This document shows positions 1-5,353 of a DNA stretch of 64,000 bases, in pieces (position 1 is the first letter of the stretch; the number at the start of each line of letters is the position of its first letter). This DNA comes from an uncultured Rivularia sp. Its GTDB lineage: Bacteria > Cyanobacteriota > Cyanobacteriia > Cyanobacteriales > Nostocaceae. The DNA lies in contig OY762007.1 of the NCBI GenBank assembly GCA_963665115.1, positions 3,136,001 through 3,200,000 on the forward strand, in the 5' to 3' direction. The translations under genes were made by a program, and so were the position numbers. The notes below the pieces were generated by a model, which had not been told where the DNA came from, searched no databases, and saw nothing but the letters and a program-made list of their open reading frames with translations.

Positions 1-1346
1 AAACCCTGTCCCTTGTAAAATCCAGCTAAACTAGTAAAAGCCAAAAGTAAATTTTTATTGCTGAGTGCATCGGTTAAGTTTTCGGTGACTTCTGTTAAGT
101 GGGGAATAGCTGTTTTTACTGAGTTGATAAAATCTATGGTTGGTGTATCGGGAATTGTTTGAGCAATTTCGATAAAAGTAGTGATAAATGCTTGTTTGAT
201 TTTGTCAATATCAGAATCTACTGTTAATTTTACTTTTAAAAATTCTCGAATTAAGGGATGTATTTTGTAATAATATTCTTCATCTTCTTCCAAACACTGT
301 ACTAAGTGACGTTGGTAAATTTGCTCGATTCCTAACTCAACCACAGATTCATTCCAATTGAGGTGTTGAGTCATGGAATCTGCCCATTCCCAAGCAAAAA
401 TATCGGCTGCAAATAAACTTAATAAACTTGCAATTTGCTGTGTTTGCGGATTCAATTCCACCCAACTAATTTCAAATGCTGCTAAAACCCCACGCTGTGC
501 TGTACTTAGAGTTTTGTACTGAGGATTTAATGCTTCTTGATGCAGTCGCTGCTGTTTCAACTGCTCTAACATTTTCGCTAAGGTGAAATGGGGAGGTTTT
601 TTAACTATATATCGTCCAACTAATTCTATTCCTAATGGTAAATATCCCAACCATTGACATAATTCTTGGGCTGTTGCGAACTCCTTATTTACTTTCTTTT
701 CACCAATAATATTAATTAATAACTGTAATGCTTCTTCTAGTGACAGCACATCGAGGGAAATTTCCTCAATATTAGTGTCAATATTTCGCAATCGAGTTGT
801 CAGCAAAATTCGGAAGCGATTATTTGCGGGAATTATTTCAGAAAACTCTTCTAAATTCGTCACATCATCCAAAACCACCAATACTAAACCCTCGGATGGT
901 TGCCAATTTTGCCAGCACCAAGCTACTTGTTGATGCAGTGTCAACACATTCCCATGAAAATCCTGCTGGGGAACTTCTAAACCCATTTGTAGCTGCACAA
1001 ATTGAATAATCCCCGCTGCTATATTCCCATTTCTGGCATTTAACCAACAAACTCCACCAGGATAATCATTTGTATGTTCCCTAGCATATTTTACCGCTAA
1101 TTCGGTTTTTCCCACACCACCCATTCCCGCAACAGCAGAAATTACTACGGTGTTATTTTTTCGGTGCAATTTTTCATTAATTGTTGCTAATTCTTCACTG
1201 CGTCCGACAAAATGAGGAATACAGGGATAGGGAATATGTTTAATAACAGATACAGTTTTTTGTGGTGGGTATGAAATAAAAGTATTACCTTCAATCTTAT
1301 TATTTCCACTTTGTACATTTATGCCTTGGAAATTTTTTTCTGTCAT
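1..1346 (-). CDS. NB-ARC (STAND) NTPase with TPR repeats (NLR-like receptor) and N-terminal putative amyloid motif; 3' end runs off the window
   Basis: Hand translation of segments in the frame of ATG 1346: MTEKNFQGINVQSGNNKIEGNTF...FVGRSEEL; Walker A GMGGVGKT; Walker B LVLVVLDDV; ILLTTR; GYLPLGIEL (GLPL-like); YKIHPLIREF (MHD-like); TPR-like LAGFYKGQG at the window edge. Absent from the ORF track, apparently because its stop codon lies outside the window. Confidence 0.9.
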   Translation of the reverse strand, partial: MTEKNFQGINVQSGNNKIEGNTFISYPPQKTVSVIKHIPYPCIPHFVGRSEELATINEKLHRKNNTVVISAVAGMGGVGKTELAVKYAREHTNDYPGGVCWLNARNGNIAAGIIQFVQLQMGLEVPQQDFHGNVLTLHQQVAWCWQNWQPSEGLVLVVLDDVTNLEEFSEIIPANNRFRILLTTRLRNIDTNIEEISLDVLSLEEALQLLINIIGEKKVNKEFATAQELCQWLGYLPLGIELVGRYIVKKPPHFTLAKMLEQLKQQRLHQEALNPQYKTLSTAQRGVLAAFEISWVELNPQTQQIASLLSLFAADIFAWEWADSMTQHLNWNESVVELGIEQIYQRHLVQCLEEDEEYYYKIHPLIREFLKVKLTVDSDIDKIKQAFITTFIEIAQTIPDTPTIDFINSVKTAIPHLTEVTENLTDALSNKNLLLAFTSLAGFYKGQG

Positions 1347-1423
1347 TTTAAATAAATTTTAATGATAATTTTAGGACTCATGCACATCGTAATCAATGGT
1401 TTGTTTTTCCTCTAACTGTCGGA

Positions 1424-1447
1424 AGACGTAGCACTGCTACGTCTCTA
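1424..1447. repeat. REP-like palindrome (GACGTAGCACTGCTACGTCTCTAC family)
   Basis: Inverted repeat; near-identical copy at ~2082-2108 and a related copy at ~44091-44117. Confidence 0.7.
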
Positions 1448-1493
1448 CAAACCGTCAGATTTTGTGAGAAAGAGGTTAGGGATAGGTTATGTT

Positions 1494-1916
1494 TTATTTT
1501 CCGAAGCTAAAAGTGTTATTACTAATAGTATTATTTCCACCTTTAATATTTATTCCTTGCCAATTTTCATTAACAATCGTGGGATTTTGCGTTTTTAATT
1601 TCTGAGCTAATTGATTGAAAGCCGTTGCTAATTCTGTATTGTTATTAGCTTTTGCTTCTACTTCTTTACCTAATACTTCCAATGCTTTTTGTAATTTCGG
1701 TTGATTTTTAGCAGTATCCTCCACCATTTCTACTAATACTGCTTCGCCGATATTTTCTCGTTCTTTCGGAGGTAGCGCCAATTTTTCGGCTGTTTCTGGT
1801 GATATTGTCTTAAGTTCCTCAAAAGCGGTATCGTAAGCTTTGCTGATACCCCAATCAATCAACTTTTCACCTAAAAAAAGAAGTAAGGCGATCGCACCAG
1901 TTGTCAAAGGTTCCAT
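1494..1916 (-). CDS. Small helical protein (Bell/HeLo-like effector candidate) with C-terminal N/G-rich putative amyloid motif
   Basis: 140 aa ORF; hydrophobic N-terminal helix MEPLTTGAIALLLFLG; C-terminus NWQGINIKGGNNTISNNTFSFGK matches the N-terminus of the downstream NLR. Confidence 0.75.
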   Translation of the reverse strand: MEPLTTGAIALLLFLGEKLIDWGISKAYDTAFEELKTISPETAEKLALPPKERENIGEAVLVEMVEDTAKNQPKLQKALEVLGKEVEAKANNNTELATAFNQLAQKLKTQNPTIVNENWQGINIKGGNNTISNNTFSFGK

Positions 1917-3294: not shown

Positions 3295-3572
3295 AGGGGG
3301 AGAGGGGATAGAGGGGGGAGAGGGGGAAGAGGGGGGAGAGGGGGTAGAGGGGGAACATCCCAAATGTTTGAATTTGTAGTGCGAGCATCTTGCTCGCTAT
3401 ATATCCAAGGAACAAGATGCCCCCACTACAGTTGTTTTTATAACCCCTAACCCTTAAATCCTAACTCCTAACTCTTAACTCCCTACTCCCTACTCTTAAC
3501 TCCCTACTCTCTACTCCCTACTCCCTACTCCTAAGTGATAATTGATAATTGATAATTGATAATTGATAACTG
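3286..3572. repeat. Low-complexity STRR tracts (GGGGAGAGG 9-mers; CTAACTC/CTACTCC and GATAATT heptamers)
   Basis: Tandem short repeats directly visible. Confidence 0.85.
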
Positions 3573-4434
3573 ATGAGCGTTGCACAATCTAATTTTCAAA
3601 ATCCGAAATCTAAAATCCAAAATCCAAAATCCAAAATTCCTCAATTCTCTTTGCCTTGGGGAATTACTATTGGTTATCTAACTATTATGCTGTTGCTTCC
3701 GGTGACAGCTTTAGTTTTACAAGCTTCTCAGGTGGGGTTAAGCGAGTTTTGGCGGATTGCTACTAGCGCGATCGCACTTTCTGCTTACAATGTCACTTTT
3801 GTGACTGCGTTGGTGGCAACTGCTGTTAATGGTGCTTTTGGTTTATTAATTGCTTGGGTACTTGTGAGATATGACTTTCCGCTGAAGCGTTTTGTTGATG
3901 CGGCGATCGATCTACCTTTTGCTTTGCCCACGGCGGTAGCAGGTTTAACTTTAGCTAATGTCTATTCTGAGAATGGCTGGATTGGCTCTTTGCTTGCACC
4001 GTTGGGTATTAAAGTTGCTTTCAGTCGCTTTGGTGTGTTTGTGGCAATGCTGTTTATTTCGCTACCATTTATCGTGCGAGCGTTGCAGCCTGTGTTGCAA
4101 GAAATGGAACACGATACAGAAGAAGCGGCTTGGAGTCTGGGAGCGTCGAAGTTTCAAACTTTTTGGCAAGTAATTTTTCCACCTTTATTTCCAGCTTTGT
4201 TAACAGGTATTGCTTTAGGCTTTTCTCGTGCTGTCGGAGAGTACGGTTTCGATTGTAATTATCTCTTCAAATATTGCGTTCAAAGATTTAATTGCATCGG
4301 TGTTAATTTTTCAACGTTTGGAACAATATGATTACGCTGGTGCAACTGTAATTGGAACTGTACTTTTAGGAATTTCGCTGTTAATTTTATTAGCAATTAA
4401 CTTATTACAAGCTTGGGGAAAGAGGTATCAATAA
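3573..4434 (+). CDS. cysT: Sulfate ABC transporter permease CysT (apparent +1 frameshift at ~4247-4249)
   Basis: [13 protein letters not shown] and EEAAWSLGA motifs; ORFs 3573-4331 and 4228-4434 join as [12 protein letters not shown] if one T is removed. Confidence 0.9.
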
Positions 4435-4552
4435 TTAATGGGGGATTGGGCATTGGTAATGGGTAATAGGTAATTGGTAATTATTAACTATTAATTTCTA
4501 ACTTTTCTTACTATTAACTAACAACTAACAACTATTATTTAATAAATATTGT

Positions 4553-5353
4553 ATGACTAAAAGACTTTTAATTGTCAGTGCTATTACTTACTTAGGATTG
4601 GTATTAATTATTCCGGCTGTAAATGTTTTTTATCAAGCTTTTAAAGGTGGTATTGGAGAGTTTTTAGGTTATCTGACGACTGATGATTTTCTGAGCGCGG
4701 TAGGGCTTACTTTACTTATTGCTTTGATTGTGGTGCCAGTAAATGCTGTATTCGGACTTTGTGCTGCTTGGGTTTTGGCTCGCAATCGCTTCCCCGGAAG
4801 GGCTTTTGTAATGAGTATTTTGGATGTCCCTTTTTCTGTCTCCCCGGTGGTTGCTGGTTTAATGATGATTTTGCTTTACGGGCAGAATGGTTGGTTTGGA
4901 GGAATATTGTCAGCGATTAATTTTAAGGTTATTTTCGCTTTTCCGGGAATGGTTTTAGCAACTGCTTTCGTAACGATGCCTTTTGTGGCAAGGGAAGTAA
5001 TTCCGGTTTTGGAGGAAATCGGTTCTTCTCAAGAGGAAGCTGCAAGTACTTTGGGTGCGAGTCAATGGCAAACTTTTTGGCGGGTAACTCTACCAAATAT
5101 CCGCTGGGGTTTGCTTTATGGTTTAATTTTGACTAATGCTAGAGCAATGGGTGAATTTGGAGCGATATCTGTGGTATCTGGCAATATTATTCGTAAAACT
5201 CAAACTTTACCGCTGTTTGTAGAGCAAGCTTATAAGCAATATGAAACGGAAACGGCTTTTGCTGCTGCGGTGCTACTTGCTTGTTTGGGGTTCGTCACCC
5301 TGGTTTTAAAAGAAATTTTGGAACGGAAGACGGCAGCGAGCAGCGAGCAGTGA
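4553..5353 (+). CDS. cysW: Sulfate ABC transporter permease CysW
   Basis: PFSVSPVVAGL, EEAASTLGA and ARAMGEFGA motifs. Confidence 0.93.
   Translation: MTKRLLIVSAITYLGLVLIIPAVNVFYQAFKGGIGEFLGYLTTDDFLSAVGLTLLIALIVVPVNAVFGLCAAWVLARNRFPGRAFVMSILDVPFSVSPVVAGLMMILLYGQNGWFGGILSAINFKVIFAFPGMVLATAFVTMPFVAREVIPVLEEIGSSQEEAASTLGASQWQTFWRVTLPNIRWGLLYGLILTNARAMGEFGAISVVSGNIIRKTQTLPLFVEQAYKQYETETAFAAAVLLACLGFVTLVLKEILERKTAASSEQ

Follow-up and report, generated by a model that had tools for sequence, protein, structure and literature searches.

The closest described relatives of the locus treated here are pairs of neighbouring genes in which a NOD-like receptor (NLR) and a small helical effector carry the same short motif, as in the fungal HET-S/NWD2 system, in the bacterial BASS families, whose effectors are Bell proteins, and in Bab/Agp of E. 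coli. BASS1 and BASS3 are described to form prions and fibrils, with NLR-side motifs seeding the Bell-side ones, and most BASS pairs are described as having a gap of 10 nt or less or overlapping genes (10.1101/2020.01.06.895854); BASS7 to BASS10 are given as restricted to cyanobacteria (Dyrka et al. 2020, 10.1101/2020.01.06.895854). Bab/Agp is described as an abortive-infection system against phage T5 (10.1101/2024.11.07.622273). The window analysed here, 64,000 nt of the 8.69-Mb genome of an uncultured Rivularia sp. (contig OY762007.1; G000:C1:3136001-3200000), begins with such a pair, which is a genuine, ordinary further example of the catalogued BASS7 class and not a new system. Our data make it highly probable that the two genes encode a Bell-type helical protein with a BASS7 tail and an adjacent NB-ARC/TPR NLR with the same motif, a pair predicted to act by amyloid templating. 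The more novel result is a UGA-plus-hairpin junction found at a sister locus.

Gene pair and shared motif

Both genes lie on the minus strand, adjacent and co-oriented, with the NLR gene 147 nt downstream of the effector gene. In window coordinates, the features are:

1494..1916, minus strand: Bell-type effector gene, an open reading frame (ORF) of 140 aa with its TAA stop at 1494-1496
1500..1568, minus strand: BASS7 motif at the effector C-terminus (residues 117-139, ENWQGINIKGGNNTISNNTFSFG), matching instances of class C12 = BASS7
1347..1493, minus strand: intergenic spacer of 147 nt, containing a copy of a dispersed repeat at ~1395-1462
1278..1346, minus strand: NLR start codon (ATG, 1344-1346) and N-terminal BASS7 motif (MTEKNFQGINVQSGNNKIEGNTF), the start being backed by 17/17 homologous NLRs
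507..1193, minus strand: NB-ARC NTPase domain (Pfam PF00931; NLR residues 52-280), with FVGR at residues 46-49 and the P-loop GMGGVGKT
1..506, minus strand: remaining in-window part of the NLR, a helical linker; the gene runs past the window start into the TPR units

The effector ORF ends in ...NENWQGINIKGGNNTISNNTFSFGK (...NPTIVNENWQGINIKGGNNTISNNTFSFGK), and a 19-residue stretch of it, NWQGINIKGGNNTISNNTF (nt 1509-1565), has its counterpart in residues 5-23 of the NLR (nt 1278-1334), with 12 of the 19 residues identical. A first-pass annotation had drawn the same layout of two co-oriented genes, with the same motif positions and the same 12/19 identity, and had described a receptor without an N-terminal enzymatic domain; the ORF positions, the aligned motifs and the Pfam content of the NLR (only NB-ARC at 52-280, then TPRs) agree with it on each count.

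The similarity of the two motifs is beyond chance and is not a by-product of low complexity. When the last 30 residues of the effector were compared with the 42,422 six-frame ORFs of at least 50 aa in the genome, the N-terminus of the adjacent NLR was the best non-self match (phmmer E 0.0068; blastp-short E 6.2e-4), and a loose regular expression of the motif matched just the effector and NLR ORFs in the same set. Furthermore, the motif is a catalogued one. The README of the PMC8086366 supplement equates class C12 with BASS7, and the C12 instances given in that supplement include ...ENWQGINVKGGNNTISGNTFNF on the Bell side and MSNENWQGINFKDSNPIIQGNNFNF... and MSENWHGINIKGGKNEIKGNTFIF... on the NLR side. 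Compared by eye with the listed instances, the focal effector motif shows 3 differences to C12_s006 over ENWQGIN.KGGNNTIS.NTF.F. Two effector homologues (L025 and L013) belong to the published Bell-derived BASS7 set, and their C-termini are identical to C12_s015 and C12_s005, respectively; L013 is Calothrix parasitica NIES-267, whose homologue is 82% identical to the focal protein. Since the focal tail nearly matches C12 instances and the tails of L025 and L013 are identical to listed ones, the focal pair is, as judged by eye from the motif sequences, a BASS7 pair.

A scan of one genome per species gave 29 loci that encode relatives of the effector. In 21 of them, the Bell gene and the NB-ARC gene that follows it each carry BASS7 (17 found by script; L020, L010, L011 and L013 read by eye, the Bell protein of L020 having an MDP start), seven (L031-L037) have the in-frame TGA layout described below, and one (L026) has neither layout. 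The 17 script-found loci and the window gave 18 pairs for a cognate test, in which the motifs were aligned on W/F-x-G-I/V-N and 21 positions were scored. Cognate motifs were on average identical at 14.4 of 21 positions, compared to 12.9 for permuted partners, and none of 20,000 permutations reached the observed value; with 13 de-duplicated pairs, the means were 14.08 for cognates and 12.68 for permuted partners (1/20,000 permutations). At position 18 of the motif, the two sides agree in the presence or absence of proline in 12 of these 13 pairs.

The effector starts with MEPLTTGAIALLLFLG, which forms a hydrophobic helix 1, and continues with a helical domain of ~110 residues and a disordered tail. 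Its AlphaFold2 (AF2) model (pLDDT 77.7, pTM 0.74) is a seven-helix bundle over residues 3-110, with tail residues 122-140 under pLDDT 50. The search for homologues gave 60, all of them unnamed proteins, from genera such as Calothrix, Rivularia, Nostoc and Tolypothrix. When 35 effector sequences are aligned, M1, E2 and P3 are invariant and are followed by a hydrophobic helix, and the C-terminal motif ENWQGINIKGG.NTI..NTFNFG, present in a single copy in the focal effector, is kept even at 31-36% identity over the rest of the protein. Bell domains are described as helical and ~100 aa long, their N-terminal helix being hydrophobic and position 2-3 being occupied by an acidic residue; Bell, Hell, Bab and Avast2 are reported to share a conserved 'MEPIS' region (10.1101/2024.11.07.622273). 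The focal effector, with its MEP start, hydrophobic helix 1 and helical domain, agrees with these descriptors and fits the 'MEPIS' region. Indeed, hhalign relates its family to the second Bell family of the same genome with a probability of 99.4% (E 5e-22). Pfam and PADLOC assign no family to either Bell protein, focal or paralogous, and a Pfam scan at E <= 1 found no HeLo, HET-s, Ses_B, NACHT_sigma or RHIM match. A sequence-profile search of the PDB with the effector returned coiled-coil noise only, and the best hit of a wide VIA search with the Bell model (Z 5.1) was to an unrelated chain. Structure searches with the predicted model therefore lend no support to a fold-level tie of the effector to HeLo, MLKL or Bab; Bell folds are described as varying strongly in topology (10.1101/2024.11.07.622273).

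In the NLR, NB-ARC was recognized with E 8.4e-18 in one Pfam scan and 2.5e-17 in another and is followed by TPR_10/TPR_12 units. On sequence grounds, the start codon can be regarded as secure, because the frame opens merely 4 codons upstream of the ATG, the next in-frame ATG, GTG or TTG comes at codon 60 at the earliest, behind the conserved FVGR, and all 17 of 17 homologous NLRs have an M[TS].. start 2-4 residues ahead of the motif. The first-pass annotation had considered that the real start might lie downstream of the motif, which by the frame, the start codons and the 17 homologues it does not, and had looked to homologous pairs for motif conservation and co-variation; both motifs are indeed present in 21 of the 29 loci, with cognates more alike than shuffled partners. 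What stands of its interpretation is a Bell-type effector and an NB-ARC/TPR NLR with a common motif of the amyloid-signalling type in a filamentous cyanobacterium; what has to be given up is the suggestion of a possibly uncatalogued motif family, the motif being BASS7, listed as class C12 in the PMC8086366 supplement.

The repeat in the spacer is a dispersed element of ~60 nt with the hairpin GACGTAGCAGTGCTACGTC, and a second copy lies at 2081-2109, upstream of the Bell gene. Positions 1-2000 of the window gave 56 matches to the genome, and 53 of the 55 non-self ones cover the spacer repeat (query span ~1389-1473). Because the genes are 147 nt apart with this repeat inserted, co-translation of the pair is not assured. 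An Rfam scan at the gathering threshold had no match in the window, a promoter/terminator scan of positions 1-2300 found 7 elements compared to 8.3 expected from shuffles and thus not above shuffles, and none of the RNA runs was listed as containing the focal locus.

Frameshift, proposed mechanism and rival explanations

In the assembly, the TPR array of the NLR is interrupted by a +1 frameshift, one extra A at G000:C1:3135354-3135356 (L001:854-856), 645-647 nt before the window start, where GAAGCAGCAGAAACCTCT stands for the GAAGCAGCNGAACCTCT of other TPR units. The NLR, which would have ~1075 residues if intact, is divided by the frameshift into an ORF of 687 aa and a TPR frame of 426 aa with a natural end; the two frames together hold 14 TPR_10/12 units, 5 before the frameshift and 9 (TPR_12) after it. 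In three public runs from a single study, 84-88% of the words sampled from L001:1-3500 are present, and the contigs of these runs were aligned to the locus. Run X1 has one letter less at L001 place 854, the first base of the TTT/AAA run with the extra base (depth 343.3 of 343.3, one contig), and in run X2 the same letter is missing (178.5 of 178.5, two contigs), with record 12 spanning L001 735-872 and otherwise identical. The contig of run X3 (record 20) spans L001 735-915 without a gap and carries the extra base at a depth of 210.6. Since the X1 and X2 contigs are without the extra base and the X3 contig has it, an intact and a frameshifted NLR allele both exist, and the break is polymorphic. 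X3 may be the source of the assembly and hence not independent of it, and in the assembled strain the module may be disabled by the split TPR array. The natural pair of an intact and a frameshifted allele is usable for learning what the NLR does.

Apart from the focal locus, the 18-nt string with the frameshift is found in identical form at a single site of the genome, within the TPR array of the paralogous NLR (L002 ~3479-3481). In the assembly, the TPR arrays of the focal NLR and of its paralogue are disrupted by an identical insertion of one base (GCAGAAACC for GCAGAACC). NLR damage is also seen in the nearest relatives of the focal pair: in L010 and L011, two assemblies of metagenome-assembled genomes (MAGs), the motif is present and frameshifted relative to NB-ARC, and in L013 the NLR is truncated, with most of NB-ARC lost. 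In the window, cysT (sulfate permease; 3573-4600, plus strand) is frameshifted after ...AVGEYG, and its conserved C-terminal part continues in the +1 frame, which reflects either a real pseudogene or an assembly indel error. Because cysT, 3 kb away from the NLR break, is also frameshifted, the assembly may carry indel errors.

Our model of the mechanism is drawn by analogy with HET-S/NWD2, BASS1 and BASS3, and E. coli Bab/Agp. Binding of a ligand by the TPR array would lead to oligomerisation of the NB-ARC domain, and the clustered N-terminal motifs of the NLR would then form a cross-beta nucleus that converts the tail of the free Bell protein. The converted Bell protein may release its hydrophobic MEP... 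helix 1 for an attack on the membrane, and the resulting cell death might serve as altruistic defence of the filament. A cell-death or anti-phage role is thus proposed for the focal pair by analogy only, and amyloid formation, killing and phage defence would be expected of it in the same sense.

Several points weigh against this reading. The experiments described in the text of 10.1101/2020.01.06.895854 cover BASS1 and BASS3 only, not BASS7, and a Foldseek search of the pdb set with the Bell model gave no match at E <= 0.001, be it to HeLo, MLKL or any solved chain. The focal NLR motif, with W changed to F, K to Q and G to S, is among the most diverged on the NLR side of the 18 pairs (12/21 to its partner, near the low end of the range of 11-18), the NLR is frameshifted in this assembly, and the genes are separated by a 147-nt gap with an inserted repeat in place of the usual overlap. 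Finally, the comparison of cognate and permuted motifs takes no account of shared ancestry, and L010, L011, L013 and L020 stand outside it.

It is conceivable, although somewhat doubtful, that the pair is a dead relic in the sequenced strain, in which the frameshift truncates the NLR after 5 of 14 TPR units and thereby abolishes ligand recognition and signalling; such a relic would be compatible with BASS7 membership of the pair. The division of the gene by the extra A (687-aa ORF, 426-aa TPR frame), the presence of this letter in the X3 contig with 0 gaps (depth 210.6) and the disrupted NLRs of L010, L011 and L013 point in this direction. However, the X1 and X2 contigs without the extra letter argue for an intact allele in the same organism, and the cysT frameshift makes an indel error in the source data possible. 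Furthermore, the frame downstream of the break is open throughout and its 9 TPR_12 units are clean, and any break of the NLR would therefore be recent.

We consider it improbable that the motif is an ordinary docking peptide, acting by beta-strand addition or heterodimerisation, or a leftover of gene fission, in either case without self-propagating amyloid. In favour of such a peptide are the restriction of the fibril experiments to other BASS families, the disordered effector tail of the AF2 model, and co-inheritance, which alone could give part of the cognate similarity. But the motif has the composition and alternation of the BASS families (N/Q/G with I/V/F), two BASS families are shown to form prions and fibrils with the NLR side seeding the Bell side, and the motif is nearly unchanged where the helical domain is down to 31-36% identity. 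Chance similarity of two low-complexity stretches, both short (19-23 residues) and N/G-rich, has a negligible probability: the neighbour is the single best non-self match in the genome, the regular expression hits just these two ORFs, and 21 of the 29 related loci have this motif pair as well. This recurrence, together with the genome-wide ORF search, refutes it. Amyloid templating by a BASS7 pair is thus the reading that we prefer.

In-frame UGA junctions at the paralogous locus

A second NLR lies 47 kb away; nucleotides 1-1211 of the window are 77% identical to it, the similarity ending just before FVGR. A second Bell gene (MEPITAATIATLAF...), whose C-terminal motif differs from the focal one, lies upstream of this paralogous NLR. 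Immediately after its TGA stop, the frame continues into LQSSAGEPTKYHPIKYIPKFGSDNFVGRQ... and NB-ARC, with no ATG, GTG or TTG between the TGA and the Met of the P-loop. A first order-wide pattern search gave only 2 further genomes, the pattern being too narrow; the junctions finally came from the following sources:

G000:C1:3088808 (L002:1426-1470), 47 kb before the window: the paralogous Bell/NLR junction
Bell-homology set (L031-L037): 7 junction loci
two genomes from the narrow pattern: 2 junction loci
metagenome matches to a pattern leaving the codon before CTACAG free: 13 of 13 are junction loci
top matches of a covariance model based on 18 junctions: 29 of 29 are junction loci
weaker matches of the same covariance model (39.6-69 bits): 20 of 20 are junction loci

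At all 72 of 72 junction loci, the paralogue and 71 others (L031-L039, L041-L053, L056-L105), the stop is TGA and the Bell-motif module and the sensor are in one frame. Among the 151 family genomes searched with the covariance model, 63 from 39 of 68 genera were matched at E <= 0.001. The de-duplication script recognised 69 of the 72 loci, which gave 64 distinct 75-nt junctions; in these, the TGA is followed by C in 62 cases, by A in one and by G in one, and CTA is the following codon in 47 and CTG in 14. Bell genes of the two-gene layout, where their stop does not overlap the ATG of the NLR, end in TAA or TAG in 10 of 10 cases (11 with the focal TAA). No ATG, GTG or TTG precedes FVGR in 14 of 16 NB-ARC loci of one set and 17 of 29 of another.

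Eight nucleotides after the TGA starts a 5-bp hairpin with a loop of 8-9 nt. It is paired in 90 of 90 cells of the 18-junction alignment and in 145 of 145 cells of an independent 29-junction alignment, where it has to be considered that the metagenome pattern fixed parts of the stem and that the 29-junction alignment was fitted to the model. Compensatory changes occur in 3 of the 5 pairs (16 sequences with C-G and 11 with U-A, to give one example), none of 500 shuffles reaches the observed values, registers shifted against the observed one pair in at most 41% of cells, and RNAalifold, unaided, predicts the same helix. Folds of single sequences were not better than shuffles (z -0.44 to +0.53), and the case for the hairpin therefore rests on covariation. 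A pseudoknot is possible; the stem GGGA/UCCC is paired in 72 of 72 cells, with no compensatory change seen.

The modules upstream of the junction belong to no fewer than three Bell subfamilies, and their tails are of many different kinds (BASS7-like, BASS9-like and several more); the sensors downstream of it, most of them NB-ARC, are without a motif of their own. One downstream sensor carries a CHASE2 annotation, in which the start is placed 73 nt behind the TGA, and several sensors lack a P-loop. The junction also precedes non-NB-ARC sensors in L033 (Calothrix brevissima NIES-22 plasmid4, AP018211.1 68791-70581), L092, L095, L100, L101 and L103-L105. At L090:701-775, TGA GTG takes the place of TGA CTN; a start codon right after the stop would allow termination-reinitiation rather than read-through.

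UGA followed by C is described as a weak terminator in bacteria (PMC5289835). The invariant TGA, the shared frame and the hairpin suggest programmed read-through at the junction, with a predicted stimulatory role of the hairpin. Selenocysteine insertion at the UGA is unlikely: aragorn found no tRNA-Sec, selB was not found above the cut-off, and Rfam matches to tRNA-Sec were below the cut-off and correspond to tRNA-Ser genes. A search for fused forms with a sense codon, made for longer proteins with the paralogous Bell protein, gave one weak TPR match only. The aragorn output also contains a tRNA with the anticodon CUA (labelled Pyl, amber-reading) at G000:C1:203200-203273, minus strand, and a divergent, AT-rich second tRNA-Trp(CCA) that heads a run of tRNAs (Trp, Tyr, Ser, Arg) at 2710194-2710541, plus strand.

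In our model, for and against which we see the balance as even, the Nostocaceae possess a recoding cassette, consisting of the invariant UGA, CUA or CUG, and the covarying hairpin 8 nt downstream, which would fuse any Bell-motif effector to an NLR, CHASE2 or other sensor by programmed read-through. Many free Bell-motif effectors and few effector-motif-sensor fusions would result, both with the identical amyloid motif; a single motif copy would then do for effector and sensor alike, and Bell modules of any kind could be placed ahead of a sensor. The focal pair and its paralogue would then represent a 'duplicated motif' and a 'read-through' design side by side in one genome. If true, this would be a chromosomal and widespread form of programmed read-through in bacteria, carried by 63 of the 151 family genomes searched, and it would explain the perfectly matched amyloid tag, the skewed stoichiometry of sensor and effector, and the many different Bell-motif modules upstream of sensors without a motif of their own. 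We found no published description of read-through at such UGA junctions, including in the texts of 10.1101/2020.01.06.895854 and 10.1101/2024.11.07.622273, exclusive of the bioRxiv supplements.

Comparison with known systems

With the BASS7 pairs of cyanobacteria (Dyrka et al. 2020), the focal pair has in common the small helical MEP... protein with the C-terminal ENWQGINIKGG.NTI..NTF.F motif, the adjacent collinear NB-ARC/TPR gene that starts with the same motif, and the filamentous cyanobacterial host. Such pairs are defined by a collinear NB-ARC/NACHT gene with TPR/WD repeats within 5 kb, and the focal NLR is such a gene. The focal genes differ by their 147-nt spacing with a dispersed repeat, where others overlap, by an unusually diverged NLR motif (F for W, VQSG for IKGG) and by a TPR array that is frameshifted in the assembly.

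The fungal HET-S/NWD2 (HRAM) system has the same layout, an N-terminal NLR motif that matches the C-terminal motif of a neighbouring, membrane-targeting helical effector, and its mode of action is predicted to be alike. However, the fungal effector has two pseudo-repeats of the motif where the focal effector has one copy, the fungal receptor is of the NACHT/WD type and the focal one of the NB-ARC/TPR type, and HeLo, HET-s, Ses_B and NACHT_sigma of Pfam are without a match in the focal pair. With no HeLo or HET-s at E <= 1 and a single motif copy, the pair falls outside HET-S/NWD2 (HRAM); likewise, with neither the RHIM nor the Ses_B profile in the Pfam scan at E <= 1, it falls outside the RHIM, BASS3 and PP motifs.

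E. coli Bab/Agp (BASS11) shares an N-terminal helix of the 'MEPIS' type that is cupped by helices and a C-terminal amyloid motif in common with the product of the adjacent gene (10.1101/2024.11.07.622273). At ~80 aa, the Bab domain is the shorter of the two, and its motif belongs to another family, BASS11; the function of Bab/Agp is demonstrated, whereas the focal pair is known from sequence.

The junctions of the paralogous type invite comparison with known read-through signals. In retroviral gag-pol read-through, the stop is followed by an 8-nt spacer and a pseudoknot, and in the coliphage Q-beta the coat protein is extended at a UGA. The junctions differ in that they lie on a bacterial chromosome and join a death effector to a sensor, with a read-through product that is predicted; they are alike in the invariant UGA followed by C, in the conserved in-frame extension and in the hairpin 8 nt after the stop.

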